Below are positions 40,648 through 63,374 of a stretch of DNA of 64,000 nucleotides, in pieces. This DNA comes from Akkermansia muciniphila (lineage in GTDB: Bacteria; Verrucomicrobiota; Verrucomicrobiia; Limisphaerales; SIAT01). Location of the stretch: positions 5,296 through 69,295 of the forward strand of contig CAMDJP010000008.1 of assembly GCA_945900775.1 (NCBI GenBank), in the 5' to 3' direction. Position numbers and translations under genes: made by a program. Positions within the stretch are counted from its first letter, which is position 1, and the number at the start of each line of letters is the position of its first letter. The notes beneath the pieces are model-generated. The model had not been told where the DNA came from. It saw nothing but the letters and a program-made list of their open reading frames with translations, and did no database searches.

Positions 40648-40877
40648 GAATACAGCTGTCGAGATTTGAGCCGACGACCGACGGTTTACAAACCAATCGC
40701 GCTGCATTTTTTATAAGACCCACCTGCGAAGTGTGAGCTCGTTCCTTGCAGTCAACCCAGGCCCATTTTCGATGTCCTCAAAACGTCCATTTCTAGCTCT
40801 GGCGAAGACCTTTCCCCTTGCATCAGGGCGTCATCCCGCTTGACCGCCTCGCGCTGGATTGCGAAGGTTTAAGGATC

Positions 40878-42137
40878 ATGAAAGCTATTCTGTTGCTCGT
40901 CGCCCTCGTCTTTACATTCGCTGCCCAAGCCCAGACCGCTCACTCGTGGAAGAAACTCCAGCTCAGTACCGAATTCTGGAGCGAAGGCGCGCACATCGGC
41001 GACTTCAACAAAGACGGCAAGATGGACGTGGCCAGCGGCCCGTACTGGTACGCTGGGCCGGACTTCAAGGCGAAGTACGAGATTTACCCCGCGACGAAAC
41101 GCTCCAAGAGCACCAAGAACGGCCAGCCCGTGGAGTTCGCCGGTTTCAAGGGCGCGCTCGGCAGCGAGAACGATTACTCCGACAACTTCATCTCCTACAC
41201 GCACGACTTCAACAACGACGGCTGGACCGACTACCTCGTCAACAGTTTCCCGGGCAAGGAGACTTTCTGGTACGAGAACCCGCAGAACAAGACCGGCCAC
41301 TGGAAACGTCACGTCGCCGCCGATGTCACCGACAACGAATCGCCCATGTTCGCCGACATCACCGGTGACGGAAAGCCCGAGCTCATCTTCCACACCGGCG
41401 GGCACCTCGGCTACGCCACGCCTGACCCGAAGGCCCCGACTGCTAAATGGACCTTCCACAAAATCTCTGCCAAAGGCCCCTGGCAACGGTTCACCCACGG
41501 CATCGGCATCGGCGATGTGAACGGTGACGGCAAGTCCGATTTCCTGATGAAAGAAGGTTGGTGGGAACAGCCCGCCTCCCTCACCGACACGCTCGAGTGG
41601 ATTTTCCATCCCACACCCTTTGGCGCCGGTGGCGCGCAGATGTACACGTACGACGTCAACGCCGACGGTCGCCCCGACGTCATCACCAGCCTCGTCGCCC
41701 ACGGCTACGGCCTCGCATGGTTTGAGCAACTCGCCGAGAAAGATGAAAAAGGGCATCCCAAGTTCAAACAGCACACCATCACGGGCAGCAAGCCCGAGGA
41801 GAACAAGTACGGTGTTAAATTCTCACAAATCCACGCCATCGACCTCGTGGACATGGACGGCGACGGTCTCAAAGACATCGTCACTGGCAAACGTTTCTGG
41901 GCCCACGGCCCCACCGGCGATGCCGAGCCCAACGCGGCCGCCGTCGTCTATTGGTTTCGCCTCACCCGCACCGCCGGCAAAGGCGTGGACTGGGTCCCGC
42001 AACGGATTGATGATGACTCCGGCATCGGCACCCAAGTGCTCGCCGCTGACGTCAACGGCGACAAACTTCCCGACGTCATCGTCGGCAACAAGAAGGGCAC
42101 CTTCGTCCACATCCACGTCCTCGGCAAAGCCGACTAA
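40878..42137 (+). CDS. Secreted FG-GAP/VCBS repeat (seven-bladed propeller) protein
   Basis: The ATG at 40878 is preceded by AAGGA and gives the signal peptide MKAILLLVALVFTFAAQAQ. Seven Ca-binding-type FG-GAP loops are present: DFNKDGKMDV, DFNNDGWTDY, DITGDGKPEL, DVNGDGKSDF, DVNADGRPDV, DMDGDGLKDI, DVNGDKLPDV. Confidence 0.85.
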   Translation: MKAILLLVALVFTFAAQAQTAHSWKKLQLSTEFWSEGAHIGDFNKDGKMDVASGPYWYAGPDFKAKYEIYPATKRSKSTKNGQPVEFAGFKGALGSENDYSDNFISYTHDFNNDGWTDYLVNSFPGKETFWYENPQNKTGHWKRHVAADVTDNESPMFADITGDGKPELIFHTGGHLGYATPDPKAPTAKWTFHKISAKGPWQRFTHGIGIGDVNGDGKSDFLMKEGWWEQPASLTDTLEWIFHPTPFGAGGAQMYTYDVNADGRPDVITSLVAHGYGLAWFEQLAEKDEKGHPKFKQHTITGSKPEENKYGVKFSQIHAIDLVDMDGDGLKDIVTGKRFWAHGPTGDAEPNAAAVVYWFRLTRTAGKGVDWVPQRIDDDSGIGTQVLAADVNGDKLPDVIVGNKKGTFVHIHVLGKAD

Positions 42138-42249
42138 GCCTTGCGGTGGGCGTTCTTGGCTCAGCGCAGTTGAGCTTGCTGTGCAGTCGCTGTGGAAGTG
42201 GGGCACGTCTGTGATTCACCACTTGACCCCGTAACGGTGAACCCGCCAA

Positions 42250-42594
42250 ATGCTGCGGATGTCGGTGTTGCACGTATTCAGATTTGTCGGGTTGCTTTTG
42301 GTGTCCCTAACGACTCTAGCGGTTACGGCTGCCGAGGCATCTAAGGAGTTTCTGCCCGTTGGTCCGGCTCTATCTCGCCAGTACCTGACTGCGGCCGAGC
42401 GCACGCCCATCGTGAAAGCGCTTCTTGCACACGCCGAGGACGCCGCCGACCACAACTTGCGGCTGATGTATTGGTTCGCTGCTGAACCCATCGTTGCCGC
42501 TGCGCCGGCCAAAGTTCCGTTGCTGTTGGCCAAAACGAAAATCCCACTCCTGCGCGAATACATCACCCGCGGCATGACCGCCGGCATGAAATGA
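42250..42594 (+). CDS. Small secreted protein resembling the segment that precedes the HEAT region in PVC-type heme-binding proteins
   Basis: 114 aa with signal-like VFRFVGLLLVSLTTLAVTAAEA. The motif DHNLRLMYWFAAEPIV...KIPLLREYITRG recalls the xNLPLMxWYxxEP segment of that family (from memory). The stop overlaps the next ATG (ATGA, 42591-42594). Confidence 0.5.
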   Translation: MLRMSVLHVFRFVGLLLVSLTTLAVTAAEASKEFLPVGPALSRQYLTAAERTPIVKALLAHAEDAADHNLRLMYWFAAEPIVAAAPAKVPLLLAKTKIPLLREYITRGMTAGMK

Positions 42595-43790
42595 AACGTT
42601 GTTGCCTGACCCTCCTTTTGCTCCTGCTCGCTGCAAGCGCGATGCTCCCGTGCGTTGCCGAGGAACCGGACACGCTGGCCCCGCTGGTGCAGCTGCTCGC
42701 GGCATCTGATGACGTGCAGCTCCACCTCGACGTCCTCAAGGGAATGAGTGAGGGGCTGAAAGGTCGGCGTGGTGTGAAGCCGCCGGGAGGTTGGGAGGTG
42801 CTCGCCGCCAAGCTCGCCAAAAGTCCGCACGCGCAGGTGCGCGAATTGGCGCAGCAGCTTTCGGTGACGTTCGGCAGCCAGACGGCGCTCGCTGCGCAAC
42901 GCACGCAACTAGCGAACGCGAAGGCACCGGTGGCCGAGCGGTTGGCGGCATTGGAATCCCTTGTCGCAGCGAAGGACACGGGCCTGGCGCCGTTGTTGCC
43001 GGGATTATTGAACGACACGGCGCTGCGCGGCGTCGCGTTGAGGGCGATGGCGTCGTTCGATGACGTGAAGTTCCCACCGGCCATCCTCGCCGCTTATCCG
43101 AAACTGAACGCGGCCGAACGTAAGGATGGCCTGGCTACGCTGGTGGCGCGGCCGTCCAGTGCGAAGGAACTCCTCACGGCAATCGCCGCGGGCAAGGTGC
43201 AGGTGAAGGACCTTTCGGCTGACCTCGTGCGGTCGCTGCGCGCATTGAAGCAACCGGAGTTGGTCAAGCAGGTGGAGCAGTTCTTCGGCGTATCGCGCGT
43301 GAGCGACGCCGATAAGCAGAAGGAGATTGCGCAGTTCAAGGAGATGCTGGCGGTATTGCCGAAACGAGCTGATAACCTGTCGAATGGCCGCGTGCTTTAC
43401 ACCAAGACGTGCGGCCAGTGTCACGTGCTTTTTGGCGAGGGCGGCAAGGTGGGACCGGACATCACCGGCTCGAACCGCGCGGACTTGGATTATCTGCTCC
43501 TGAACATCCTCGATCCAAACGCGGAGATTGCGGCGGATTACCGGCCGTGGGAGCTGGAGACGAAGGACGACCGCAGCATCCTCGGTCTGCTAGTGCGGCA
43601 GGACGCGCAGGTGGTGATGCTCCAGACGCCGACGGAAATCGTAACGGTGACGCGTGCGGAGATTAAATCGCTGCGCCAATCGCAGCTCTCGATGATGCCT
43701 GAAGGATTAATCGCCGCGTTGAGCCCTGTGGAGGTGCGCGACCTGATCGCCTACCTCCGCAGTCCTAAGCAGGTGCCGCTGTCGAAGTGA
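42591..43790 (+). CDS. HEAT-repeat protein with C-terminal c-type heme-binding domain (Pirellula/Verrucomicrobium-type)
   Basis: 399 aa with signal-like MKRCCLTLLLLLLAASAMLPCVA and HEAT-like repeats. The C-terminal segment is GRVLYTKTCGQCHVLFGEGGKVGPDITGSNRADLDYLLLNILDPNAEI...SMMPEGL, with a CxxCH heme-attachment site. Confidence 0.85.
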   Translation: MKRCCLTLLLLLLAASAMLPCVAEEPDTLAPLVQLLAASDDVQLHLDVLKGMSEGLKGRRGVKPPGGWEVLAAKLAKSPHAQVRELAQQLSVTFGSQTALAAQRTQLANAKAPVAERLAALESLVAAKDTGLAPLLPGLLNDTALRGVALRAMASFDDVKFPPAILAAYPKLNAAERKDGLATLVARPSSAKELLTAIAAGKVQVKDLSADLVRSLRALKQPELVKQVEQFFGVSRVSDADKQKEIAQFKEMLAVLPKRADNLSNGRVLYTKTCGQCHVLFGEGGKVGPDITGSNRADLDYLLLNILDPNAEIAADYRPWELETKDDRSILGLLVRQDAQVVMLQTPTEIVTVTRAEIKSLRQSQLSMMPEGLIAALSPVEVRDLIAYLRSPKQVPLSK

Positions 43791-44757: not shown

Positions 44758-44885
44758 AAGAGGACCTTCAATTTAATTTGGGAATCATGATTTGACCAGA
44801 TTGCGAAAGAGCAGACAAGCCTTCGCGATGCGAATCTTTTCATGACAAACCGTTGGAGCTTTGCCGCGGTCGAGTTAAGTTCTCG

Positions 44886-45575
44886 ATGGCCGGCGCACGC
44901 CGGCTAACCATGATCCGTCAGCAAGTCTTTACGACGGCGGGGGAACTATGCCCGCCCGAGCCGCCTCACGCCTCACAGCTTGCGGTGCTGCACAGCATCT
45001 ATCCGCTCGCGGCGGCGCTCGCAGCGGTCGGCATGCCGCGGCTGTCGTGTCGGGCGAACGCTGCTCTTTTCCTGGAACGCTACGCTGAGCGCGTCTGCCC
45101 AGTAGAGCTTGCGGTAGTTCAGCAGGCATTCACGCACGCGGCGAGCGGCCATTCGCGTGAGTTGATCGCGCTCGACCAATCGTTGCCGAAGCTGGCGGAA
45201 CTTCGGGAACTGGCTGGGGCGAGCGCGCTGGCTGGGCGGCTGCAAAGCGAGCATCTGCGTCCGCTGCGCGATGAACGTCTAATGCAGCGGTACTGGGAAG
45301 CGGTGGAAGGTGGCGCGGTGAGTGGTCACCATTGGGTCGTGTTTGGCATGACGCTCGCGCTCTACTCGGTGCCGCTGCGGCAGGGGCTGCTCGGATTTGG
45401 ACGCGAGACACTGGCGGGACTATCGATTGCAGCCGGTAAACAGCTTGTGTTGCCGGAAACCGATTTGGCTGAGCCGCTGGCTTCGGCAACGGAGCGACTG
45501 CCGAGCGTGGTCGAGGGAGTCTTGAGTGGTGGCGGTTGGTCGGGCTTAGCGACGAGCCTCAGAACAGGCCGTTGA
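44886..45575 (+). CDS. Hypothetical protein with weak UreF-like resemblance
   Basis: The start is uncertain (ATG at 44886 or 44910; the track uses 44853). The segment GHHWVVFGMTLALYSVPLRQGLLGFGRETLAGLSIAAGK loosely resembles the UreF core (HxxxxFGxxxxxxGxxxxxxxxxYL...). No urease genes are nearby. The 3' end overlaps mlaD convergently by 17 nt. Confidence 0.4.
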   Translation: MAGARRLTMIRQQVFTTAGELCPPEPPHASQLAVLHSIYPLAAALAAVGMPRLSCRANAALFLERYAERVCPVELAVVQQAFTHAASGHSRELIALDQSLPKLAELRELAGASALAGRLQSEHLRPLRDERLMQRYWEAVEGGAVSGHHWVVFGMTLALYSVPLRQGLLGFGRETLAGLSIAAGKQLVLPETDLAEPLASATERLPSVVEGVLSGGGWSGLATSLRTGR

Positions 45576-46629
45576 AGAGGATGCCGATGACGCTGAGCGG
45601 GCCTTGGTCCTCTAGTCCCTCGGTGGCCTTGTCCAGCTTCTGCAAGGTCATCTTCGCGTTCTTGAAGAGGCTGTCGTCGTTGATGAGTTTGCCGATGGAG
45701 CCTTGGCCCTGATTTATTTTCTGGAGAATCTCGCGGAGGTTGGTCATCGCCTGCGTGGTCTCCTTGTAGAGCGCCTCGTCCTTGGTGAGCTTGCCGAGAG
45801 TGCCTTTGCCTTCGTTGATGTCGCTGACAACTTTCTTGACCTCTCCAAGTGTCTCCTTAGCCGTGCCAAGTGTCTCCTTCATCGTGCCGATGGCGCTGCG
45901 GGCGTCGGTGAGCATCGACTTGGCTTCGCTGAAGGTGTTTTTGGTTTCTGGAACGAGGGTGGCCAAGTCCTTCGCGGCCGTCTGAAACTCCTTCGAGCTG
46001 GCGAGCAGGGAATTGTGGAGGGCGTCATCGCCGATGAGCTTGCCGAAGGTGCCTTTGCCATCGACGACGTCCTGCGAGATGCGCTGGAGGTTGGCGAAGA
46101 TGATGGCGAAGCGGGGATTGTTGTGCTTCAAGAAATCGGTCATCGGGCCGAGAACGTTCTGGATGCTGTCGCCGCTGAAGGTCTTGGTGAGGTTCTCGAC
46201 TCCACCGGCGACGCTATCGAGTTTGGAGATGAGAGAGGAGAGGTCGGCTGTCTCGGTGGTCTTGAGCACATCGTCGTGCTTTAAGTGCGTGCGGTCGCCG
46301 CCGAGGGCGAGGGAGACGAAGTTCTGGCCCATCATGCCCGTGAATTTGACTGTTGCGACGCTGTCGGTACGGATTTTGTTCTCACGCGTCAGCCGCATCG
46401 AGACGCGGACCTTGCTCTCGTGGAAGCCGATCTTCTCGACGCGGCCGACCTGCACGCCGGCCATCTTCACGGGATCGCCGACCTTGAGTTCCTGCACATT
46501 GAGGAAGTCGCCGTGCAGCGTGTAGCCGGGCTTGAAGAGGCCGATGCCGGAGAGTTCCAGCACGAGCACGGCTGCGAAGGCCACCAGCACGAAATAGATG
46601 CCGAGGCGGGTCTCGAGGGTATTTTTCAT
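45559..46629 (-). CDS. mlaD: MCE/MlaD-family substrate-binding protein with extended helical C-terminus
   Basis: 356 aa with an N-terminal TM helix. The MCE domain reads GYTLHGDFLNVQELKVGDPVKMAGVQVGRVEKIGF. The long C-terminal region carries repeated GKGT(F/L)GKL(I/T) motifs. Confidence 0.85.
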   Translation of the reverse strand: MKNTLETRLGIYFVLVAFAAVLVLELSGIGLFKPGYTLHGDFLNVQELKVGDPVKMAGVQVGRVEKIGFHESKVRVSMRLTRENKIRTDSVATVKFTGMMGQNFVSLALGGDRTHLKHDDVLKTTETADLSSLISKLDSVAGGVENLTKTFSGDSIQNVLGPMTDFLKHNNPRFAIIFANLQRISQDVVDGKGTFGKLIGDDALHNSLLASSKEFQTAAKDLATLVPETKNTFSEAKSMLTDARSAIGTMKETLGTAKETLGEVKKVVSDINEGKGTLGKLTKDEALYKETTQAMTNLREILQKINQGQGSIGKLINDDSLFKNAKMTLQKLDKATEGLEDQGPLSVIGILFNGLF

Positions 46630-46641
46630 AAAATCACTCCA

Positions 46642-47400
46642 TTAGACGGGTTTGAAGTTCGCGTTCAGGAATTCTTGGATGACCGAGTTCGGGGTCGCGC
46701 GGACCTCGTCGGCCGAACCGACGCAGAGGATGCGGCCGTTGTGGATGATTGCGATACGGTCGGCAATCCCGAAGGCGAGGTCACGATCGTGCGAGACGAC
46801 AATCGAGGTGGCGTGGATGCGTCGGCGCATATTCACAATCTCCTGGCCAATGGTCACGGCCATCAATGGGTCCAGTTCGCTCGTTGGCTCGTCGTACAGG
46901 ATTAGCTCCGGCTCCATCACCAGCGCGCGGGCGATGGAAGCGCGCTTCTTCATGCCACCGGAGAGCTCGTTGGGCATCCGATCCTTCGCCCCTTTGAGGC
47001 CGACGAGGTCGAGCTTCGCTGCGACAATGGCCTCGATTTCCGGTGCCGGTTTCAACCGGTGCTCCGATAAATACAATCCGACATTCTCGCCGACGGTCAA
47101 TGAGTTGAGCAGCGCGCCGGACTGGAAGACCATCGCCATCCGATGCCGGTCCATCAGGCCGGGCGTTGCGATGGGCTCGCCGCCGATGAGGACCTCGCCC
47201 GCGTCGGGGGTCTCCAACCCGATAAGGTGCTTGAGCAGGACGCTCTTGCCGCTGCCGCTTGGGCCCATGATAACGAAGATTTCGCCCGGTTCCACCCGCA
47301 GGTCTACGCCATGGAGGACCTCCTCACCGCTGAAGCTCTTGCGCAACCCACGTACTTCCACGCGGCCGCCGTGGCCGGAGTTGTGGTTCGAGGCGTTCAT
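46642..47400 (-). CDS. mlaF: ABC transporter ATP-binding protein, MlaF type
   Basis: 252 aa. Walker A GPSGSGKS, signature LSGGMKKRASIARAL and Walker B LILYDEPTSELD are present. It lies between mlaE and mlaD. Confidence 0.9.
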   Translation of the reverse strand: MNASNHNSGHGGRVEVRGLRKSFSGEEVLHGVDLRVEPGEIFVIMGPSGSGKSVLLKHLIGLETPDAGEVLIGGEPIATPGLMDRHRMAMVFQSGALLNSLTVGENVGLYLSEHRLKPAPEIEAIVAAKLDLVGLKGAKDRMPNELSGGMKKRASIARALVMEPELILYDEPTSELDPLMAVTIGQEIVNMRRRIHATSIVVSHDRDLAFGIADRIAIIHNGRILCVGSADEVRATPNSVIQEFLNANFKPV

Positions 47401-48140
47401 CAGAGATGAATCATCATCCGAGTGAGAAAGTAGTCGAGGATTAGAATCAGCACGATTGAATTAACGACGGCCTTGGTCACCGACCGGCCGATGCCGCGCG
47501 GGCCGCCGATGGTCTGGAGGCCCTGGTGACACGAGACGATGCCGATGGCCAGGGCGAAGGCGAAGCTCTTGAGCAGGCCGTTGGCGAGGTCGCCTAGTTG
47601 GACGAGACTCTCGAGGTTGCTGAAGTAGGTCTGGTACGGAACGCTGATTAGGTCGTTGTTGGCTGCGACCACCGCGCCGCCGAGCCAACCGATGAGGATG
47701 GCGAAGATTACGAGCGTGGGCAGCGCAATGCAGATGGCCACTATCCGGGGCAGTACGAGATAATTTATCGGGCTGATATTCATCGTGCGCAGCGCATCGA
47801 TTTCCTGATAGACCGTCATCGAGCCGATTTCTGCCGCCATTGCGGAGCCGATGCGCCCCGCGATTAGTATGGCCATCATCACGGGGCCGAGCTCTTTGCA
47901 CATCGAGAGGCCGACCATCCCGCCTAGCACATTGCCGAGACCTCGCTCGACCAGCAACGGGCCGGTCTGCAGCGCCAGCACGCCACCGATGAAGAGTGAT
48001 AAGACACAGGCCATGAAGAGACTGGCGTTGCCAATTTCGAAGAGCTGTTCGAGTACCTTGCGCCGGTGTATCCACAGGAGCGGCAGCGCCTGGAGCGTAC
48101 GCCAGAACAGCAGAATGGCTTGGCCGATGTCGTGGAACAT
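47400..48140 (-). CDS. mlaE: ABC transporter permease, MlaE type
   Basis: 246 aa polytopic protein. The pattern ...GPLLVERGLGNVLGGMVGLSMCKELGPVMMAILIAGRIGSAMAAEIGSMTVYQEIDALRTM... is characteristic of MlaE/TTG2B permeases. The stop overlaps the mlaF start by 1 nt. Confidence 0.9.
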   Translation of the reverse strand: MFHDIGQAILLFWRTLQALPLLWIHRRKVLEQLFEIGNASLFMACVLSLFIGGVLALQTGPLLVERGLGNVLGGMVGLSMCKELGPVMMAILIAGRIGSAMAAEIGSMTVYQEIDALRTMNISPINYLVLPRIVAICIALPTLVIFAILIGWLGGAVVAANNDLISVPYQTYFSNLESLVQLGDLANGLLKSFAFALAIGIVSCHQGLQTIGGPRGIGRSVTKAVVNSIVLILILDYFLTRMMIHL

Positions 48141-48146
48141 ACTGTG

Positions 48147-49598
48147 CTAGGGATTTGCGGGCTTCGTCTCCGCGCCGAACGGGATGAAAAACAGCCGCCA
48201 GCGAGAACTCTCCTTGGTCTGTTGATACTGTAGCAGGCCGAAGAGGAGCGAGCAATTTTTGGATTCCGGCGTTTCGTCCTGCCGGTAGAGATTCCAGAGG
48301 AACGACTGGCTCGTTGCGCCGGTCTTCCCGTTCTTTTCTGTGCGCCAGATGGACCAGAGCGGCGACCAGTTTCGCTCGACGGCCGTGTTACCAAGCAGCA
48401 GCGGTTCGAACGGAGCGATGATCTGCGTGCGCTCGCTGCCGTCCAGCTCGCGGCGATGCGTGAAGAGCGGCCAGAGGGCGTGCCGTTCACGCGTGGCACC
48501 GGTGGCGGTGTTCCGCTCGTGAGTGTCTTGGTAGAGGAAAAGGAGGTAACGGCGATTTTCGCGCTCGAGCGGTGGGGCCTGAACGCTCGAGCTGCGGTAG
48601 AGCGGCCAGAGCAGGAACTCGTTGGTCTGGCTTGCGGTGTGAGTCTTGCCGTAGAACGGCCAGAAGCGTGCGCCGTTCTTGTTCTCGCTACTGGTCGAGA
48701 CGATGAACGGCCACGGTGCACCGTACTCCACGGATTTCTTCTCGTGATCGTTGATGCGGTAGAAGAACGGCCAGAGGACGCTCTGATACTCGCGCAGGGC
48801 GGAGCGTTGTGTGATGAAGAGCGGCAGCAACGCGTGCTGCGTCTGCGCGTTAGTCGTGCCGATGCCGAGACGGTTGTGGTGGTAGAGCGGCCAGAGCGCG
48901 AAGGACTTCTCGTGCCCGCCGATGATCGTCTCGTCACCGAACCCATCTTTACGCGTCGTCACATCTTTCTTCTCGTGGCCGATCAGCGGCCAGAATTGCC
49001 AGCCGTCGAGCTTTTCGCCGTGGCGCAGATGGAAGAAAGGGAAGAGGTAATTCTCGGTCACGACGTCCCGCTTGCGGGTCTTCCCGTAGAGCGGGAAGAG
49101 GAGGAACTCGATTTCATCCCGGAGCAGGCGGTTCTTAATCTGGCCGTAGATGGGGAAGAAGGCCGTGTAATTCTCCTCTGGGTTCGGCGAGCGCTGCCTC
49201 CAGTAGAAGGGGAAAATCGTGACGCGATCGGCAGTAGTGCCGTCCTGCCGGCCACTGCCGCCAAAGCTGATGAGCTGGAAAAGTTGCCAGCGCGATTCCT
49301 TACCGGTGCGGTTGTAGGAGAGCAGCGGGTAGAGGAAGTCGTACTCCTCGAAGTCTGTGTCGTACTCGGTGTGCCACGAGAGCAGCGGCGGGATGGCCCA
49401 CTGCGCGTGCGTGCCACTTCGTTCGCTGCCCCAGAACGGTCCGAGCGCCTCGGTGCGTTCGCCCTCGCGTAACGTGAGCCGGTACTCGTGATAGAGCGGA
49501 CCGGAGGCAGCCGCGCTTGCCATCAGTGTGGCGGATAGCGCGAAAACGATTATGGCAATGCGTGATAACATCCTTAAAACAGTGGAACGACTCGGCAC
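48147..49598 (-). CDS. Exported 483-aa aromatic-proline hairpin-repeat protein, unknown family
   Basis: Signal-like RIAIIVFALSATLMASAAASG. There are about 16-20 irregular ~22-aa repeats with a hydrophobic-aromatic-Pro-hydrophobic-aromatic core followed by polar or basic residues. Examples: LYPLLSYNR, IFPFYWRQR, FFPIYGQIK, LFPLYGKTR, LFPFFHLRH, FWPLIGHEK, LWPLYHHNR, LWPFFYRIN, FWPFYGKTH, LWPLYRSSS, LWPLFTHRR. It lies 6 nt upstream of mlaE and 25 nt downstream of the MMPL gene. Confidence 0.75.
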   Translation of the reverse strand: MPSRSTVLRMLSRIAIIVFALSATLMASAAASGPLYHEYRLTLREGERTEALGPFWGSERSGTHAQWAIPPLLSWHTEYDTDFEEYDFLYPLLSYNRTGKESRWQLFQLISFGGSGRQDGTTADRVTIFPFYWRQRSPNPEENYTAFFPIYGQIKNRLLRDEIEFLLFPLYGKTRKRDVVTENYLFPFFHLRHGEKLDGWQFWPLIGHEKKDVTTRKDGFGDETIIGGHEKSFALWPLYHHNRLGIGTTNAQTQHALLPLFITQRSALREYQSVLWPFFYRINDHEKKSVEYGAPWPFIVSTSSENKNGARFWPFYGKTHTASQTNEFLLWPLYRSSSVQAPPLERENRRYLLFLYQDTHERNTATGATRERHALWPLFTHRRELDGSERTQIIAPFEPLLLGNTAVERNWSPLWSIWRTEKNGKTGATSQSFLWNLYRQDETPESKNCSLLFGLLQYQQTKESSRWRLFFIPFGAETKPANP

Positions 49599-49623
49599 AA
49601 GTTACACCATGCCCGCGGTGCGG

Positions 49624-52356
49624 CTAGTCGGGCAGAACAACTTGGCTGCCGATACCTTTAACCCTCCAACCCGACTGCGTCAATAAAGTCAGCACAGCTG
49701 GCAGGAAGGTGAGGCCTGCCAGCATGCAGGTCGCCGTGCCCACGGCCATGATGAAGCCGAGGCTGGCGATGCCCTGATGCTGCGCCAGCATCAGGCTGCC
49801 GAAGCCGGTCGCCGTGGTCAGCGCCGAGACGAGCACCGCTTTGCCGGTGCTCTTGGCGAGAATGCCCGGATTCTGCTCCTCCGTGAAACGGTTGAGGATG
49901 TGGATACCGTTCGTCACGCCGACGCCGATCACCAGTGGCAGCGTCATGATGTTCGCCGGGTTGAACATCACTCCGCATGCGCCCATCACACCAATCATCC
50001 ACGCTGTACCGAGTACCACCGGCAGTAGCGATAGGATTACGCACGAGATGTTTCGAAAATGGATGAAGGCGAGCACCGCGATGGCGCCGAGCGCGTACCA
50101 CGCGGCTTTGATGTAACTGGTCTTGAGCAGCTCGGTGTACTCGTAGAGCTGCACCGGCGTACCGGTGGCGTTCGGCGCGACCTTCCGCACCTGCTCCACG
50201 AACTCCTGCTGCGGCCCGCGCTGCCACACGTCGCCTTTCGGATAGACCTGCAGCAGGTGACGGCCCGTGCGGCCGATGAACCGTTCGCGCAGCGCGGCTG
50301 GGAATTCCTCCGGTCGGAGCCCGCCGCGGTCGTGTTGATCACGCAGCGAAGCGAAGGTAGCCTGTATATCTTCCAACAGCGCGCGCTGGAAGTCGGCAAT
50401 CTGCGTCGCGGCCACGCGCCGATTCTCAAGCATCGGGACGCGCAGACGATCGATAGTTCCCGAGAGTGATTCGAGTTCCTTGAGCAGCGCTTTGTCGCCC
50501 GCCTTTTTCACCTCGGAAATCGCCGCGCCCAAGTAGCCCTGAAAGGCGTAGAGCGTCCGGCTCAACTCCTCCACGTCCACAGGCGCGCGGTCCACCGGCG
50601 CGAAGCGGATCGCCCCCGCGGCGGCTTTGATTTCGTGAATCACGCCGAGCTTGCGGCCGGGATTCTCGGCGAGGAATTCCGTGAGCGACTTCACATCCGC
50701 CACCGCTGGTAGCTTATTAAGCTTCTCTTCCAGTAGGAAAGCTTGCTGCGGCGTGTCCGCGACCACGGCGGCGAAGAGCACCGAGTTTGTGGCGGACTGG
50801 ATTAACTGCCGCTCCGTCTGCACCGCCGGGAGATTGGCCGACTGCATATTGAGTAGGTTGTAATCGAAGTGGACCTTCGAGAATTGCGACGCGGACAGGG
50901 CGCAGAGCGCGACTGTGAGGCCTAGGACCGTCCACGGGCGGTCGAGCCAGTAGCGCTCGAGGCGCGCGCGCCCATTTGTGTCCACCGGGGGATGCGGCAT
51001 GGCGTGGTCCAGCGCGTTCTGTCGGCCACGCAGCAGTAGCGCCGGCAACGCGGTCATCATCGGGACGAGACAGATGAGCAGGCCGCCGCCGGTAATGATA
51101 CCCATCTCTTGGATGCCCCGGAAATCGGTCAGCGTCATCGCGAGGAAGGCGCCGGCGGTGGTGAAGCAGCCGGTGAAGATACCCAGCCCTGTATTCGCCA
51201 TCGCCAGTTCCAAGGACTCGCGCTCGCTTTTGCCGTTGCGCAACTCCTCTTCATAGCGCGTTACGAGGTGGACACCGAAATCAATCGCTAGCCCGATGAG
51301 GATCGGCGCGAAGGTGATGGTGAGTAGATTCAAATGGCCAACGACCAGTGTCGTGAAGCCCATCGTGTAGGCGAGACCGAGGATGAGGCTGAACACAGCC
51401 TTCAACGGGCGGCCGGTCTCGTGATAGCCATAGATAAAAATGAGCGCGGTGAGCAGGAGCGAGACGACGGTGGCAAGGGCGGTGTCCACCTGCACCTGCG
51501 CCATCTCGTCCATCTCCAGCACGGGCTCGCCCGTCACGCCCACGCTCACGCCCGGCACCTCGTGCTTCGTGATCGCGACGAGTTCGCGCAGTCGTCGGAC
51601 AGCCGCTTCGTTGAGCTCCGGTTTCGTTGCCAACGCGGCTACCAGATAGATTCGTCCGCTCGCGAAGGTTATGTGCAGCTCCTGTTCCGCTTCGGGATTG
51701 CCAATCAGCGCGGCGAAGCCCGGCGGCGGCGGTGGTCCGGTCCGTTCGATGGCGTCCGCTGCTTGGCCGATGATTTTCTGCAGCGCAGGCAGGGCTTTGA
51801 CAAGCTGGTGGTTTTGCTCATCGGTGTTCTTTCCGGCGGTGCGAAACTGCGAGTTCACCTGCTGCAGCAGCGAGTTCAGGTTCGTGACCGAGGCGAAAGT
51901 CTCGATGAACGGTGCGTAGTCGCGCAACGCCGCGCGCAACTCGCGAAGCTCCTCGAGCGGCGCGAAGAGTAGCGTCTTGTTTCCCAGCACGCGCAGGTCG
52001 CGCTTGTAGAAGATGCCGGTGAAGAGGTTCGTTTCCGCCTCCAGCCGCACGCCGAGCCGTTCCACGAACTGGCGGTTTTTCTCGGGCGTTTCGCTCTCGA
52101 CCACCACCACGAGATTGTCCTGCTGCGGGAATTCCTCGCGGAACTCGAGGAAGATTTTGTGGTACCGCTTCTCTGCGCCGACGAGGTCGTTGCGATCGGT
52201 ATGAAACTCTAGCTTCTGGACGGTGTAAACGACACAGACCGCCGCCAGCACCACCTGCGGCCAGAGGAACCAGCCGGGCCGGCGGAAAACCGCACCGGTG
52301 AGCGACGTCAACAGTCGTTCGGCCCAAGAAAGTTTGCGTGTCGAATGGTCGCTCAC
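49624..52356 (-). CDS. MMPL/RND-superfamily transporter, HpnN-like
   Basis: 910 aa with two 6-TM bundles, each followed or preceded by large periplasmic loops. The N-terminal pattern FRRPGWFLWPQVVLAAVCVVYTV...FPQQDNLVVVVESETPEKNRQFVERL...LLFAPLEELRELRAAL resembles hopanoid-transporter-like (HpnN) RND proteins (from memory). Confidence 0.8.
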   Translation of the reverse strand: MSDHSTRKLSWAERLLTSLTGAVFRRPGWFLWPQVVLAAVCVVYTVQKLEFHTDRNDLVGAEKRYHKIFLEFREEFPQQDNLVVVVESETPEKNRQFVERLGVRLEAETNLFTGIFYKRDLRVLGNKTLLFAPLEELRELRAALRDYAPFIETFASVTNLNSLLQQVNSQFRTAGKNTDEQNHQLVKALPALQKIIGQAADAIERTGPPPPPGFAALIGNPEAEQELHITFASGRIYLVAALATKPELNEAAVRRLRELVAITKHEVPGVSVGVTGEPVLEMDEMAQVQVDTALATVVSLLLTALIFIYGYHETGRPLKAVFSLILGLAYTMGFTTLVVGHLNLLTITFAPILIGLAIDFGVHLVTRYEEELRNGKSERESLELAMANTGLGIFTGCFTTAGAFLAMTLTDFRGIQEMGIITGGGLLICLVPMMTALPALLLRGRQNALDHAMPHPPVDTNGRARLERYWLDRPWTVLGLTVALCALSASQFSKVHFDYNLLNMQSANLPAVQTERQLIQSATNSVLFAAVVADTPQQAFLLEEKLNKLPAVADVKSLTEFLAENPGRKLGVIHEIKAAAGAIRFAPVDRAPVDVEELSRTLYAFQGYLGAAISEVKKAGDKALLKELESLSGTIDRLRVPMLENRRVAATQIADFQRALLEDIQATFASLRDQHDRGGLRPEEFPAALRERFIGRTGRHLLQVYPKGDVWQRGPQQEFVEQVRKVAPNATGTPVQLYEYTELLKTSYIKAAWYALGAIAVLAFIHFRNISCVILSLLPVVLGTAWMIGVMGACGVMFNPANIMTLPLVIGVGVTNGIHILNRFTEEQNPGILAKSTGKAVLVSALTTATGFGSLMLAQHQGIASLGFIMAVGTATCMLAGLTFLPAVLTLLTQSGWRVKGIGSQVVLPD

Positions 52357-52451
52357 CCTTGATTACTCACCGGAACTCCTTCGCGGTCAGCGGATGCAGT
52401 GAAGCACGAACCCGCGCGTCCGCCAACGAACTTTTCACCGCAGTCGAGCCG

Positions 52452-53723
52452 TCAGAGCGTCTTTGCCATCGCTTGACCAAGCCGTGCAATGCCCGAGCGC
52501 AGGTTCGCTTCGCTTGCTGCACCAAAGGAGAGGCGCAGTTCGGAATCGGGCTTGCGCCGAGTCGCATCATCGCAGTAGCAGAGCGCGCCGGGTACGTAGA
52601 CCACGTCGTTCGCCAGCGCTGACTGAAAGAGCTTTGATTTCAGACCGCTTCGCCTGCCGCGTGGCAGCCGCGCCCAGAAATAAAGCCCGCCATCGGGCAT
52701 CTCCCACTCGGCGTGCTTGAAAAGATGTTCCTGCATCGCCTCGGCCATCACCTTCGTCTTCGCGACGTAACGCCGGTGCAACGTGATGAGGTGGCGATCG
52801 TATTCGCCGGTGGCTAGCGCTCGCGCAAGCAACCGCTGCAGCAGGTGAGCCGTGCCGAAGTCGTGGTTGCCCTTGATGCGCGTCACAGCCATCAGCAACG
52901 GCTCTGGCAATACGCCGTAGCCAACGCGTACCCCGGTGGCGAATGGCTTGCTGAACGTGCTCGTGTAGATTACGCGATCCACCGCGCCGCGCACGGTGAG
53001 TGCGGAAGGAATATCCTCGCCTCTGAAGCGCAACTCGCGGTACGCGGCATCCTCGAGCAGATAGATTGGATGTCCCGCTGCGCGCTCGTACTTCCGCAAA
53101 AGCGCGAGCGCGGCCTTCTTCTTCGCGAAACTTGTCGTCACGCCGGTCGGGTTCTGGAAATAGCTCACCAGATAGAGCATCTTCACGCGGCGCAGTTCGC
53201 CACGCTTTTTCAGCGATTCCAGCACTTGCTCCAGATGTGCCAAGTCCACGCCATCCGGCTCAATTCGCACACTACGGCAACGCAATCCGCGGCTCTGGGT
53301 GATGCCGAGATAGACGAAGTAGGTCGGGTCCTCGACCAGCACGATGTCCCCCTCATCGCACAAAGCCTCGGTGACCATGTAGAGCAGTTGCTGCGAGCCG
53401 TGCGTGAGGATGAGGCGGTCGGGAGAGTAGGTTGCCACCCCAGTTTGCGCCCCATCCTGCCGTGCCAGATGCGCTGCCGTGAGTTGGCGCAACTCGGGGT
53501 CGCCGGCAGTCGCGCCGTACTGGAGCGCGGGTTGGCCGGTCTCCGCTGAGGCGAGTAGATTATTCAAAAGTCGCCGAGTCGCACGCAACGGCAGCGACGG
53601 ATTGTCGGTGAAGCCGGCCGCGAGTGAGATGAGCTTTGGCCGGGCCAGTGCCATCTGCATCAGCCACGAGATTGGTGGCTGCGCAGTGCGGCGAGCGAGG
53701 ACCGAGAGAGCGGTGCGTTTCAT
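52452..53723 (-). CDS. PLP-dependent aminotransferase, class I/II (2-aminoadipate/MocR-type catalytic domain, no HTH)
   Basis: The ATG at 53723 gives MKRTALSVLARRTAQPPISWLMQMA...LISLAAGFTD. The PLP-lysine motif is YTSTFSKPFATGVRVGY. The track's upstream start at 53786 is less likely. Confidence 0.85.
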   Translation of the reverse strand: MKRTALSVLARRTAQPPISWLMQMALARPKLISLAAGFTDNPSLPLRATRRLLNNLLASAETGQPALQYGATAGDPELRQLTAAHLARQDGAQTGVATYSPDRLILTHGSQQLLYMVTEALCDEGDIVLVEDPTYFVYLGITQSRGLRCRSVRIEPDGVDLAHLEQVLESLKKRGELRRVKMLYLVSYFQNPTGVTTSFAKKKAALALLRKYERAAGHPIYLLEDAAYRELRFRGEDIPSALTVRGAVDRVIYTSTFSKPFATGVRVGYGVLPEPLLMAVTRIKGNHDFGTAHLLQRLLARALATGEYDRHLITLHRRYVAKTKVMAEAMQEHLFKHAEWEMPDGGLYFWARLPRGRRSGLKSKLFQSALANDVVYVPGALCYCDDATRRKPDSELRLSFGAASEANLRSGIARLGQAMAKTL

Positions 53724-53757
53724 TTTTGGGATGATGGTTGTGGAATATGACGAGTCG

Positions 53758-55029
53758 TCAGCGGAACGATGGCAAATTGCCCGCACTGTCGAAGGTCATC
53801 TCTGTTGGCGTGCTCATCACACTGAGTTCAGAGCGGCCAGTCAGTTCAGGCAGATACGCCTCTGAAACCTCGACGTGCGAGAGCGAGAGAGTGTCGGTGA
53901 TGCGGATGACTTTCGCGCGGGCGGGTTCGCCAGTCGCGAGCGTTTCGAGGAGGCGCACGATGGCCTCTCGATCAGTCTCGAAGCAGGGGGGGATTTTAGC
54001 GCATTGCGGCGTGAGAGAGGTGAGCGCGTTGATGTAGGTGACATTCTTATCCATCTCGGCGACAAGCCTTGTGGTCGTCGCGTCTGCTATCCCAACACCG
54101 ATGGCGTTGCCGTGCGTCTCGGGTGTGAGATCGCGTACGAAGATGCGCCGCACGACGGGCGCCTGTTGCAGCAGGGCGAGGTCGGACGTGTAGCCCTGCA
54201 CGCCGCGGAGGATGACGTTTGGGTCCATGCCCGCGCCGCTGATGTTCTTGCCGATGCGGTCCACGATGAGCAGGTCCACCGCGTCGAAGGGCAGTCGCGG
54301 CATCAGCCGTTTCGCCTCCTGGAACAACCCCGCCTCTTGCGTCTCCATTTTATTCGTGGGCAGGAAAGCGATGCGAGCGGTTTGGTGATGCGGGTCCTCG
54401 ACGATGCCAAGCCCACCGAGTACCGGCGCGGTCTTCACGATGACGCGTGCGATGGAACGGAGCATCCGCTCGTGACCGAGTCGGCTCGCAGCAATATGAA
54501 ATGCAGCGGCACCGGCGCGTTTACCGAGGCCGATCACGAGCATCTTTAATGGCCCGCTGCCGAGCGTGTCGCTGCTGAAATCGGTGTGCGGCTTGACGCG
54601 GTTGATCAAGAGGATGCCATCCGAGCGCCGCGCTTCGACACTGACGAACACCGGCGCGCCTTCCTCCGTCACACCGACCTGTTCCACCTCCATGGTTGCG
54701 TGGATTGGCGAGCCCATTGCCGTCTCGGTGATGCCATACTCGGCAAGTAGCTCGCGCTGGCCATCGGGCGTGGCGCCGCCGTGGCTGCCCATCGCGGGGA
54801 GGATGAACGGTTCAGCACCCGCGCTGCGGAGGGTTTCGAGTGCAACGCGGACGATGGCGGCAAGGTTCGTGATTCCGCGGCTCCCAACGCCCACGGCGAT
54901 TTTTGCTCCGGGCCGGAGTTGTGCGATCAACGGAGCCAATTCGCACTGTACGGTTGCGGCAACATCGATCGGAGGCGTGGGCGGAAAGTCCTGTCGCAGC
55001 GCGAACATTTTTGGGAACGGCTGACTCAT
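53758..55029 (-). CDS. LarA-N/DUF2088-like (lactate-racemase-domain) protein
   Basis: The ATG at 55029 gives MSQPFPKMFALRQDFP.... The segment KIAVGVGSRGITNLAAIVRVALETLRSAGAEPFILPAMGSHGGATPDGQRELLAEYGIT resembles the LarA N-terminal/DUF2088 family (from memory). The longer track start at 55143 would overlap the thiG start region. Confidence 0.45.
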   Translation of the reverse strand: MSQPFPKMFALRQDFPPTPPIDVAATVQCELAPLIAQLRPGAKIAVGVGSRGITNLAAIVRVALETLRSAGAEPFILPAMGSHGGATPDGQRELLAEYGITETAMGSPIHATMEVEQVGVTEEGAPVFVSVEARRSDGILLINRVKPHTDFSSDTLGSGPLKMLVIGLGKRAGAAAFHIAASRLGHERMLRSIARVIVKTAPVLGGLGIVEDPHHQTARIAFLPTNKMETQEAGLFQEAKRLMPRLPFDAVDLLIVDRIGKNISGAGMDPNVILRGVQGYTSDLALLQQAPVVRRIFVRDLTPETHGNAIGVGIADATTTRLVAEMDKNVTYINALTSLTPQCAKIPPCFETDREAIVRLLETLATGEPARAKVIRITDTLSLSHVEVSEAYLPELTGRSELSVMSTPTEMTFDSAGNLPSFR

Positions 55030-55128
55030 CGCCCCGAGCCTAAACCGTTTCGAGAGCGGTTGCGATCTTGAACCAAGCCCGTCACTCGCCTCTCGACTCG
55101 CGCAGCGGCTCATCGTAGGCTCCGCACG

Positions 55129-55917
55129 ATGTCGCTCGACCATCGTCCGCTGACCATCGCCGGCCGCACGTTCCGTTCCCGTCTCTTCCTCGGGACCGGC
55201 AAGTTTTCGGCGCCGGAGGCGATGCGTGATGCGCTTGCGGCCAGCGGAACTGAGGTCGTCACCGTCGCGTTACGCCGGGCCGATTTGAGTGGGAAGAAAG
55301 ATCCGTTCGCGAACATCCTCGAGTTCATCGATCCCCAGAAATACCTCCTCCTGCCGAATACCTCGGGCGCGATGAACGCCGAGGAAGCGGTGCGCCTCGC
55401 GCGCCTCGCCGTCGCCGCTGGCTTGCCCAAGTGGGTGAAGCTCGAGATTCATCCCGACCCGCGTTACCTGCTGCCTGACCCCATCGAGACGCTCAAGGCC
55501 GCCGAAATCTTGGTGAAGGAAGGCTTCACTGTGCTGCCGTACATCAACGCTGACCCGGTGCTCGCAAAGCGACTGCAAGATATCGGCACCGCCACGGTGA
55601 TGCCGCTCGGTTCGCCCATCGGCTCCAACCGCGGCATCCAGACGCGCGACCAGATTCGCATCATCATTGAGCAGGCGACCGTGCCGGTGGTGGTGGATGC
55701 GGGCATCGGCGCGCCGAGTCACGCCGCCGAAGCGATGGAGTTGGGCGCTGACGCTGTGCTGGTGAACACCGCCATCGCCGTCGCCTTCGATCCCTGCCGG
55801 ATGGCTGTGGCGTTCAAGATGGCCGTGGAGGCCGGCCGCGCGGCCTACGAGATTGGCCTCGCGGATCAGCAGATGACCGCCAGCGCAACAAGCCCGTTGA
55901 CGGGATTCTTGAACTGA
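55129..55917 (+). CDS. thiG: Thiazole synthase
   Basis: 262 aa. Motifs [35 protein letters not shown] and [14 protein letters not shown] are classic ThiG. Confidence 0.93.
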
Positions 55918-55918
55918 G

Positions 55919-56929
55919 ATGAAAAACCTATCATCCAAGCGTGTCCGTGAACTTCTCGCCGCAGCCGCGAAGGCGCGCGTGCTTGTCGTCGGCGACGTGA
56001 TGCTCGACCAGTTTATCTGGGGCCGCGTCTCTCGCATCTCGCCCGAGGCACCGGTGCCGGTGGTCGAATTCGAGCGCGAAAGTTTCATGCCCGGCGGCGC
56101 AGCGAATGTCGCCCGCAATCTCAGCGCGTTGGGTGCGCATACGGAATTGTTTGGTGCGGTCGGGCGCGACGGCGCGGCTAGCCAGTTGAAGGCGCTGCTC
56201 GCTGAGGACCGTGTGGACTGCGCCGGTCTTTTGCCGGTGCGCGGCCGGCTAACGACGAAGAAGACGCGGGTCATCGCCCATCGCCAACAGGTCGCGCGCG
56301 TGGACCGCGAGACGCGTGGCGAACTCGACATCAAATCCACGCGTCGGCTGCTCTCGCAGATTCAGCAAGAGTTGGCGCAGGCCGATGCCGTCATCGTCGG
56401 CGACTACGGCAAAGGCACCGTCACCGAGGCGTTGCTGCACGAGATCAAGCATCTCTGCCGGGTCCGCGGGGTCTGGCTCAGCGTGGATCCGAAGCCGGTG
56501 CACCAACTCGATCTCTCGGGACTTTCGCTCATCACGCCGAACCGCAAAGAGGCCTTCGAACTAGCCGGAGTGGCCGACACGATGCGCGTTACCGATCCGC
56601 TGGCGGACATCGGTCTGCAACGCGTTGTAGAGAAACTCCTGCGCGAACTGTCTCCGGCACTCCTGCTCATCACGCTCGGCGAACAGGGAATGCTCCTCTG
56701 CCAGCGCGGCCAGCGGTCCTTCCACATCCCGACCGCCGCGCGCGAAGTGTTCGATGTCTCCGGCGCGGGCGACACGGTGATTGCCAGCTTCACCCTCGCC
56801 ATCGCGGCAGGCGCGTCGCCGGTGGAGGCGGCCATCCTCTCGAATCATGCCGCGGGAACCGTCGTGGGCAAGCTCGGCACCGCCATCGTCACGCCCGCAG
56901 AGCTGCTCGCGAGTTTCGGTGGGAAATGA
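55919..56929 (+). CDS. hldA: D-glycero-beta-D-manno-heptose-7-phosphate kinase (RfaE/HldE domain I only)
   Basis: 336 aa PfkB-type kinase with VLVVGDVMLDQFIWGRVSRISPEAPVPVV and DVSGAGDTVIASFTLAIAAG. No fused adenylyltransferase domain is present. Confidence 0.85.
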   Translation: MKNLSSKRVRELLAAAAKARVLVVGDVMLDQFIWGRVSRISPEAPVPVVEFERESFMPGGAANVARNLSALGAHTELFGAVGRDGAASQLKALLAEDRVDCAGLLPVRGRLTTKKTRVIAHRQQVARVDRETRGELDIKSTRRLLSQIQQELAQADAVIVGDYGKGTVTEALLHEIKHLCRVRGVWLSVDPKPVHQLDLSGLSLITPNRKEAFELAGVADTMRVTDPLADIGLQRVVEKLLRELSPALLLITLGEQGMLLCQRGQRSFHIPTAAREVFDVSGAGDTVIASFTLAIAAGASPVEAAILSNHAAGTVVGKLGTAIVTPAELLASFGGK

Positions 56930-56951
56930 TAGGTGCGATGAGGCGGCAGCC

Positions 56952-57503
56952 ATGAAACGCGCAGTCTTTCTTGATCGCGACGGCACGCTGAACGTCGAAG
57001 CGGTTTACCTAAGCGATCCGGCGAAGCTGGTGCTCTTCCCCGGCGCGGGCGCTGCACTACGGCGACTGATGGACGCGGGGTATTTGCTCATCATCGTCAC
57101 CAACCAATCAGGCATCGGGCGGGGCTATTACACCGAAGCCGACATGCATGCGGTGAATACCCGGCTGGCCGCCGAACTCGCTCCGGCTGGCGTGCGTTTC
57201 GAGGAAATCTATTTCGCGTCCGAGGCACCTGAGAAACCGAGCCGCGGACGCAAGCCGAGTCCGCAGTTCCTCTTCGACGCCCGCGACCGGTTCGGCATCG
57301 ACCTCGCGCAGAGCTTCATGGTCGGCGACAAGCTCCTCGACCTCGAGTGCGGCTGGAACGCGGGCGTGAAGGCGAGCCTTCTCGTTCGCACCGGCTACGG
57401 CTCGGAAGTTGAGAAGAAAGAGGCGACGAAGGTCGCCCGTGCGGTCGTGGCGGATAATCTGACGGCGGCGGCGGAGTGGATTCTGAATTCGGATCGCGGA
57501 TAA
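56952..57503 (+). CDS. gmhB: D,D-heptose 1,7-bisphosphate phosphatase
   Basis: The ATG at 56952 gives MKRAVFLDRDGTLN (HAD motif I), then IVTNQSGIGRGY, KPSPQF and VGDKLLDLECGWNAG. The track's 56781 start would overlap hldA and adds non-homologous sequence. Confidence 0.85.
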   Translation: MKRAVFLDRDGTLNVEAVYLSDPAKLVLFPGAGAALRRLMDAGYLLIIVTNQSGIGRGYYTEADMHAVNTRLAAELAPAGVRFEEIYFASEAPEKPSRGRKPSPQFLFDARDRFGIDLAQSFMVGDKLLDLECGWNAGVKASLLVRTGYGSEVEKKEATKVARAVVADNLTAAAEWILNSDRG

Positions 57504-63370: not shown

Positions 63371-63374
63371 TCTC

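Follow-up and report, generated by a model that had tools for sequence, protein, structure and literature searches.

What does a repeat protein without an annotated family do when its gene lies between two envelope-lipid transporters? The question is raised by a 64,000-nucleotide (nt) stretch of contig CAMDJP010000008.1 (assembly GCA_945900775.1, deposited under the name Akkermansia muciniphila), here called the window, in which consecutive minus-strand genes encode an HpnN-like transporter of the RND/MMPL type (here RND), a repeat protein (REP), the permease MlaE, an MlaF-type ATPase and a long MlaD of the MCE family. An initial annotation of this DNA had taken these genes as a single lipid-transport pathway, in which the repeat protein would be the missing outer-membrane or bridging component in place of MlaA and MlaC. 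The explanation favoured here, with a confidence a little better than even, is that REP and mlaEFD form a four-gene core with REP at the outer-membrane end, and that the RND gene is a lineage-specific neighbour. The earlier reading is partly supported in this way: the conserved order, the export of REP and its link to Mla hold, whereas a general coupling to RND and a special nature of MlaD do not.

A search with divergent seeds retrieved REP in Geotalea daltonii (Geob_1540), Geobacter pelophilus, Desulfuromonas, Thermodesulfobacteriota, Opitutaceae and Candidatus Dadabacteria. In nine of nine contig look-ups, which included Geotalea daltonii, Opitutaceae and Dadabacteria-type contigs, REP was found immediately beside MlaE-(MlaF)-MlaD, the last with MCE and Helical_needle domains, and no RND gene was found within 7-10 kb of it. 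In a metagenome scan of 80 loci, REP adjoins mlaE in 69 of the 70 that could be evaluated; this figure consists of a script count of 66 plus three loci (L105, L109 and L133) that were flagged as non-adjacent, in which the REP and mlaE alignments overlap by a few bases. The RND gene was seen only in five Verrucomicrobia-type loci of that scan and in none of the ~65 others, and across the REP-Mla loci outside Limisphaerales-type lineages, ~75 in all, it occurs in none. One of the nine look-ups, a lipoprotein variant (L090), has the permuted order E-F-D-REP, showing that the linkage survives a change of gene order, and REP and mlaE are still neighbours where identity falls to 25-30%, in three phyla or more. 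Because the linkage holds across phyla without RND, also where the order is permuted, these comparisons indicate that REP-MlaE(F)D is an ancient unit and the RND neighbour an acquisition of one order. REP is thus very probably a dedicated Mla-associated factor, and a stand-in for MlaA or MlaC is what a Mla linkage across phyla, independent of gene order, would lead one to expect. A different account would give REP no part in lipid transport: it would be an unrelated periplasmic or structural protein under the same promoter as mlaEFD, and inertia would hold the five-gene cluster together. The housekeeping nature of flanking genes (YebC, YbjQ, MTHFR) would suit it; however, inertia is not expected to preserve an adjacency at such low identity, in several phyla and through a permuted order, and the gaps are consistent with translational coupling, so that we give this account hardly any credence.

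Within the lineage of the window, a one-genome-per-species scan found 471 genomes with a relative, and the best 80 of these loci were examined, almost all of them labelled Verrucomicrobiota, Limisphaerales or Pedosphaera. Gene content was determined by tblastn with the window proteins, and counts were taken only from loci with enough flanking sequence. REP is directly preceded by the RND gene in 59/64 loci and directly followed by mlaE-mlaF-mlaD in 60/62, with a REP identity of only 49-57%; the gene order on which the initial annotation was built is therefore not unique to this genome. Since it recurs in dozens of species-level genomes at that level of identity, sequence comparison places its recurrence far beyond chance. 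The conserved flanking families in the 80 loci are YebC (36 loci), YbjQ (31), a BBP2 porin (25), MTHFR and an LpxA-like acyltransferase. The BBP2 (OmpL-like) beta-barrel porin is encoded on the other strand, after MTHFR and 1.5-3 kb downstream of mlaD, as in L007 (15347-16669, minus strand); it is not present in this window. Seven of the metagenome-assembled genome records that carry this verrucomicrobial cluster (L002, L009, L044, L051, L061, L062 and L071) have titles naming Akkermansia muciniphila, Bifidobacterium/Bifidobacteriaceae, Haliangiales or Candidatus Acidoferrum; mislabelled taxonomy or faulty binning in the public records probably accounts for these.

In a neighbour-joining tree of REP, the loci that depart from this order nest inside the five-gene clade. 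The RND neighbour was lost in a clade of three loci (L013, L058 and L031) and in L070, with REP-mlaEFD kept, and in two others (L063 and L068) mlaEFD has been separated from REP; REP is thus the element that stays with either partner. In L013, an LolCDE-like set (an ABC ATPase and two MacB_PCD/FtsX permeases) and a 266-residue (aa) protein stand directly upstream of REP-mlaEFD (5721-9858), so that another envelope-trafficking system occupies the position of RND.

These data bear on the original proposal that RND, REP and MlaFED are physically coupled into a single lipid pathway, in which REP would be the outer-membrane or bridging part shared by both transporters. The five-gene order kept in most loci of the order, the RND-REP gap of only 25 nt in the window and its closest relatives, the loci in which REP stays with RND rather than with mlaEFD, and the want of a known outer-membrane partner for HpnN are all points in its favour. 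However, RND is absent near REP in all nine contig look-ups and in the ~65 metagenome loci outside the Verrucomicrobia-type lineage, and such a coupling has no precedent. With start codons extrapolated from the alignments, the median gaps are estimated at 6.5 nt for REP-mlaE, -1 nt for mlaE-mlaF, 4 nt for mlaF-mlaD and 184 nt for RND-REP, the last leaving room for a promoter of its own; the RND-REP spacer is ~100-250 nt in most relatives and ~25 nt in the window and two closest relatives. The coupled pathway is decidedly unlikely, and it is improbable that REP additionally serves the RND pump. The part of the original claim that makes REP a missing component is strengthened by the Mla link across phyla, whereas the bridge role and the joining of RND and MCE transporters, which is confined to Limisphaerales-type loci, are not; "one pathway" for the two is unproven. 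No description of a linkage between RND/HpnN and Mla was found in the literature searched.

Several points also weigh against the four-gene core favoured here. The gap statistics depend on extrapolated start codons. In L063 and L068, YebC-RND-REP is kept and mlaEFD lies elsewhere, which leaves room for a tie of REP to RND. In 35 of 51 Desulfuromonadales-type metagenome loci, mlaF is not between mlaE and mlaD, so that the composition of the unit varies. Finally, the site at which REP acts could be another part of the periplasm, where it might carry lipids or be a regulator, for instance. The loci of reduced composition, which include L081 and L087 (Geotalea/Desulfuromonadales-type) besides those 35 among L091-L170, have an operon REP-mlaE-mlaD that is often followed by a Caroten_synth (PF04240) gene, and in such mlaF-less operons the ATPase must be encoded elsewhere.

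The partner to which REP is linked is well defined in the window. MlaE matches PF02405 at 241 bits and TIGR00056 at 227 bits, above the cutoff of 212.2, and so belongs to the MlaE family of permeases. MlaF matches ABC_tran at 115 bits and has the Walker A (GPSGSGKS), signature (LSGG) and Walker B (LILYDEP) motifs of an ABC ATPase, with a score below the cutoff of the equivalog model NF008809 (174 vs. 441). MlaD matches PF02470 at 67.5 bits (cutoff 25.1), which together with its anchor makes it an anchored MCE protein; its matches to the equivalog models TIGR00996 and TIGR04430 are below cutoff. Permease, ATPase and MCE protein are all present, and the MlaFED-type MCE/ABC core is complete in the locus. 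The family names first given to RND, MlaE, MlaF and MlaD hold by Pfam and NCBIfam profiles. By the same profiles, no MlaA, MlaB or MlaC gene is present in the block or its immediate flanks, as had been noted at the outset. Individual scans for MlaA, MlaC and MlaB (STAS) found none in the block, the flanks and the window open reading frames (ORFs) 1603-40038, and none is among the matches listed for window ORFs 40818-43790 and 55129-63911.

MlaD consists of a transmembrane anchor (residues 9-29), an MCE domain (34-108), a helical extension (~140-335) and a conserved C-terminal tail. Its matches among PDB profiles are MlaD proteins and the mycobacterial Mce1B (8FED_B, query 7-264); the ~195 residues past the MCE domain align to the helical region of Mce1B, suggesting a long needle, and its orthologues in REP-linked loci carry the Pfam domain PF28544, Helical_needle. 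The GKGTLGKL-type repeats that were reported first are present as three G-x-G-[TS]-x-GKL motifs at residues 191-198, 274-281 and 308-315 (46036-46059, 45787-45810 and 45685-45708), which are conserved in the orthologue alignment. The long helical form is not a special feature, since ~85% of MlaD homologues are long (Grasekamp et al., PMC10665443); the same study reports MlaEFD to be the ancestral core. An alignment of 78 MlaD proteins from REP-linked loci, that of the window and those of Geotalea, Opitutaceae and Dadabacteria-type loci included, shows a conserved extreme C-terminus, [DE]xGP[IL]xx[LV]Gxxx[GN]xLF. For PqiB and PA3213, an outer-membrane lipoprotein encoded in the same operon is threaded by the needle, whose C-terminal peptides dock on it (PMC13631591). 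By analogy with these peptides, we infer that the MlaD tail (GPLSVIGILFNGLF) is a candidate docking or tip element and the likeliest contact for REP.

REP itself has no match in Pfam or NCBIfam, even at E = 10, and together with more than 50 divergent members it finds no family among Pfam, NCBIfam and PDB profiles; a match to the "secreted repeat" PF03640 appears in only 2/47 family members. One word-indexed protein search returned more than 2000 homologues, none of which carries a protein name, and those with an organism given are mostly Verrucomicrobiota of the Pedosphaera type; an exhaustive profile search gave 1837 clusters at 50% identity. No description of REP was found in the literature searched, and as far as these tools show the family is undescribed. 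Down to ~25% identity, hardly any residue other than proline is invariant; these prolines recur every 17-22 residues, inside [WF]-P-[LF]-[YF]. Each hairpin is composed of a hydrophobic strand, this invariant turn and a polar or charged strand, and column statistics give the pattern "ppHpH - [WF]P[LF] - HpHpp". The hydrophobic residues cluster at the edge of the aromatic-proline turns, with polar or charged residues in the other half of each hairpin; the median pI of the family is 9.0.

The initial annotation regarded the repeat protein as exported, and the family bears this out. A simple test for a signal-type h-region was positive in 111/127 members, no internal transmembrane segment was found in any of the 127, and the N-terminus is signal-type in all members inspected. 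About 12 of the 127 are lipoprotein variants with a lipobox Cys, none with Asp at +2. These N-termini show that REP is secreted, by a predicted Sec signal peptide, and in some lineages as a putative lipoprotein. The start codon of REP in the window needs care. The GTG at 49598 gives a gap of 25 nt to the RND gene and an in-frame ATG at codon 10 gives 52 nt, and the identical public protein (P0001, 458 aa) starts at codon 26 and thus has no signal peptide. Because homologues conserve the N-terminal signal sequence, the deposited start of P0001 is probably wrong, and the GTG or the codon-10 ATG is the better candidate. The longer members contain no informative domain fusions, only low-complexity linkers rich in Pro, Glu and Asp, such as the ~190-residue disordered, acidic, Pro-rich linker that follows the signal sequence in P0168.

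An AlphaFold2 model of REP made from the 127-sequence alignment has a predicted local distance difference test score (pLDDT) of 95.3 and a predicted template-modelling score (pTM) of 0.83. A shallow alignment of 26 sequences gave a poor model (pLDDT 72, pTM 0.41), the Foldseek matches of which are meaningless. The better model is all-beta: a lone N-terminal helix (residues 4-27) is followed by 45-46 short strands of 4-8 residues, every second one polar or charged. It predicts a compact array of ~23 hairpins with the aromatic-proline turns along one edge and the other edge polar or charged. Foldseek found no global match for the model in the PDB (template-modelling score, TM, ≤0.16), only local resemblances to WD40 blades, the teneurin YD shell, the single-layer sheet of TCP10 and OspA, and the REP profile matched none of the PDB sequences, PqiC and PA3214 included. 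A YD/RHS-repeat beta-shell was considered and rejected: the teneurin match is of local type (probability 0.92, TM 0.15, root-mean-square deviation ~31 Å), and a match to RHS/YD families in Pfam is also absent. A beta-propeller was rejected as well.

An all-beta protein with ~46 strands and a signal peptide could also be an integral outer-membrane barrel, of the TGD4 or LptD kind or a split-off MlaD barrel, through which the lipid would pass. The C-terminal residues of several family members are hydrophobic or aromatic, which would fit. The Veillonella MlaD has an outer-membrane barrel (PMC10665443), and in chloroplasts TGD1-3, which are homologous to MlaEFD, act together with TGD4, a barrel protein, according to studies cited in PMC13631591. 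However, the predicted strands are shorter than the ~9 residues needed, alternate ones are highly polar or charged, and the hydrophobic residues are confined to one edge. Moreover, no outer-membrane protein, LptD or BamA family was matched in Pfam, NCBIfam or PDB profiles, and some members are lipoproteins. We rejected the barrel, which we regard as very improbable.

Another possibility is that REP is a periplasmic lipid carrier or reservoir, an analogue of MlaC that shuttles or buffers lipids for MlaFED. REP is exported and soluble-looking, without a transmembrane segment; a continuous hydrophobic stripe runs along one edge or face; and its gene is tightly co-operonic with mlaE in a locus without MlaC. 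Against this, a long MlaD needle removes the need for a shuttle in characterised systems (PMC10665443), the lipoprotein variants and the long linker of P0168 fit a tethered protein better, and ~450 residues are many for a lipid chaperone. A role of this kind is unlikely.

The favoured explanation, the REP-mlaEFD core, can be put as a working mechanism. MlaE and MlaF would form the inner-membrane ABC transporter, and the 356-aa MlaD would provide an inner-membrane anchor, an MCE ring and a long helical needle across the periplasm. REP would be a dedicated accessory subunit on the outer-membrane side, receiving or capping the conserved tail of MlaD, in a role equivalent to that of the PqiC-like lipoproteins, of MlaA or of the C-terminal MlaD barrel in other MCE systems. 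Because the needle can cross the periplasm unaided, a terminal adaptor is a likelier role for REP than a bridge. Its placement at the outer-membrane end draws on analogy with those systems and is tentative, somewhat short of an even chance. The data show the gene content of the locus, the synteny and how it is distributed among lineages, the export of REP and the character of its repeats and fold; from these we infer the physical association of REP with MlaD, the outer-membrane-side location of REP, the substrates and the direction of transport. The HpnN-like RND protein would be a second envelope-lipid transporter, plausibly for hopanoids, and a stable upstream neighbour in Limisphaerales/Pedosphaerales, where its recruitment probably serves the co-regulation of outer-membrane lipid supply. 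A bolder combination, in which REP is a new structural class of MCE-needle terminus and in Limisphaerales also a hub that takes the cargo of the HpnN-like RND protein, is quite improbable; if true, a transporter driven by the proton-motive force and one driven by ATP would converge on one periplasmic or outer-membrane hub.

The RND protein matches Pfam MMPL (PF03176) at 139 bits, and its best NCBIfam model is HpnN (TIGR03480), with scores below the HpnN cutoffs (606.7 vs. 751.85 for TIGR03480, 377 vs. 1100 for NF052374). The nearest solved relative is HpnN of B. multivorans (5KHN_B, 202.8 bits, query 16-888 vs. chain 6-859), and the next PDB matches, MmpL4 and MmpL5, score below 40 bits; the architecture is HpnN-like over the full length. 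An assignment as the sterol transporter BstA was rejected, with a score of 303 against a cutoff of 1400 for NF045600 and no BstB/BstC-type match among the neighbours. A look for shc and hpn genes, advised with the initial annotation, found none among the matches listed in the 64-kb window, where the only trace is a 30-bit SQHop_cyclase_C match in a 352-aa protein of an unrelated cluster, and no hopanoid genes among the conserved flanking families of the 80 related loci. A cultured member of the order, Limisphaera ngatamarikiensis, has been reported to have hpnF, hpnG and hpnN (PMC9543262). A hopanoid role of the HpnN-like gene is therefore plausible, and its joining to the operon suggests that, in a single order abundant in soil and fresh water, the supply of the outer membrane with hopanoids and phospholipids is under co-ordinated control.

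The features of the block are collected in Table 1. The ORF coordinates agree exactly with the order and strand of the five genes as first described. The spacings that follow from them are 25 nt for RND-REP, 6 nt for REP-mlaE, a 1-nt overlap for mlaE-mlaF and 12 nt for mlaF-mlaD, all as first given except for the last, which had been trivially miscounted as 11 nt.

Table 1. Coordinates of the five-gene block and of sequence features within it, numbered along the window
Feature	Position	Strand	Length	Basis or remark
HpnN-like RND/MMPL transporter gene	49624..52356	(-)	910 aa	ORF list and profile match
REP (repeat protein, unannotated family)	48147..49598	(-)	483 aa	ORF list; adjoins mlaE
REP, predicted signal peptide, residues 1-31	49506..49598	(-)		basic n-region, hydrophobic core, ASAAAS region; read from sequence
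REP, repeat body, residues 34-478	48165..49499	(-)		~23 predicted hairpins, each 18-20 residues
mlaE permease	47400..48140	(-)	246 aa	PF02405, TIGR00056
mlaF-type ABC ATPase	46642..47400	(-)	252 aa	ABC_tran
Long needle-type mlaD/MCE gene	45559..46629	(-)	356 aa	PF02470
MlaD, span with three G-x-G-[TS]-x-GKL motifs	45685..46059	(-)		regular expression on the translation
MlaD, C-terminal tail ...EGLEDQGPLSVIGILFNGLF	45562..45624	(-)		alignment of 78 MlaD orthologues

A promoter scan of 45000-53000 performed no better than on shuffled sequence, and a terminator scan of the same region found no convincing internal terminator. The block is flanked by an aminotransferase, a LarA-like isomerase, a UreF-like ORF and a transaldolase, none of them an Mla component. 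The minus-strand stretch upstream of the RND gene (52452-55143) encodes a LarA-like nickel-pincer-cofactor-dependent isomerase (group 22, 468 bits vs. a cutoff of 400), which overlaps a class I/II aminotransferase by 29 nt; this pair is kept only in the two closest relatives (L001 and L002), and elsewhere YebC holds that position. The UreF-like ORF (44853-45575, plus strand; Pfam UreF, 45 bits) is convergent with mlaD and shares 17 nt with the 3' end of that gene. Further urease genes, whether accessory or structural, were not seen near it, and a copy with 35% identity lies downstream of the cluster in L018. Farther away, a long co-directional cluster of the MoxR/Bat "aerotolerance" type (16859-40038, plus strand), several members of which have no Pfam match, contains a MoxR AAA protein, a DUF58 protein, a BatA-N/CARDB protein, a DUF4175-like protein and a HEAT protein. 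It also contains the 352-aa protein mentioned above, whose weak prenyltransferase/SQHop_cyclase_C-like repeat is not that of a real cyclase, and two giant propeller proteins of the PQQ_2/BamB-like kind (1279 and 1408 aa), the larger with an F5/8 type C domain. A VIT-vWA protein (12262-14586) is directly followed, on its downstream side, by a 1195-aa ORF without a Pfam match (8643-12230, minus strand).

An acknowledged gap is how lipids pass into or out of the outer membrane where MCE tunnels end (PMC10665443, PMC13631591). The known outer-membrane partners of MCE proteins are barrels, MlaA-like lipoproteins and PqiC-like lipoproteins, with none known for Let and Mce1 (JBC 2026, PMC13631591). 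Bacteria of the Planctomycetes-Verrucomicrobia-Chlamydiae (PVC) group have neither MlaA nor MlaC nor an MlaD barrel, and most MlaD proteins in general are long and barrel-less (PMC10665443, PMC13631591); the C-terminal barrel is likewise absent in the Fibrobacteres-Chlorobi-Bacteroidetes (FCB) group, and partner proteins yet to be identified may be needed (PMC10665443). The REP family, which Verrucomicrobiota, Desulfobacterota and Dadabacteria-type lineages encode together with MlaE(F)D, is a concrete candidate for the missing component, and it occurs in tractable hosts such as Geotalea daltonii (Geob_1540) and Geobacter species with orthologues.

Of the known systems, E. coli MlaA-F has homologous MlaE, MlaF and MlaD MCE domain, whereas the locus studied here has no MlaA, MlaB or MlaC, and its MlaD is much longer (356 vs. 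183 aa). The HpnN proteins of B. multivorans (5KHN) and Rhodopseudomonas resemble the RND protein over its full length; the RND gene, however, has no hopanoid biosynthesis genes beside it, here or in the 80 related loci, and adjoins REP-mlaEFD instead. In chloroplasts, TGD1/2/3 are homologues of MlaE, MlaD and MlaF and have an extra all-beta outer-envelope protein, TGD4 (with TGD5), to which REP may be likened. However, TGD4 is described as a membrane beta-barrel, and the short charged strands of REP argue against membrane embedding. Veillonella parvula has only MlaE, MlaF and MlaD, without MlaA, MlaB or MlaC, and its long helical MlaD was proposed to bridge the envelope (PMC10665443), as may be the case here. 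However, that MlaD ends in an outer-membrane beta-barrel of its own, whereas the MlaD of the window ends in a short conserved tail and a separate REP gene is present.

The systems PA3211-PA3214 of P. aeruginosa, Mpc of Brucella and PqiABC of E. coli combine a single long-needle MCE protein with an exported protein from the same operon, as is seen here (PMC13631591, PMC12436622). They also have conserved C-terminal peptides on the MCE protein, like the MlaD described above, and theirs dock on the outer-membrane partner; the first two use an MlaE/MlaF-type ABC transporter as in the window, whereas E. coli PqiABC has PqiA instead. The difference lies in the partner: no PqiC-like gene is present in the locus, and REP is a ~450-residue all-beta hairpin-repeat protein without a match to PqiC or PA3214, usually with an ordinary signal peptide in contrast to the lipobox of the alpha/beta PqiC-like lipoproteins. 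If REP is a true new terminus, it would be a third kind beside the MlaA-like or PqiC-like lipoproteins and the barrels.

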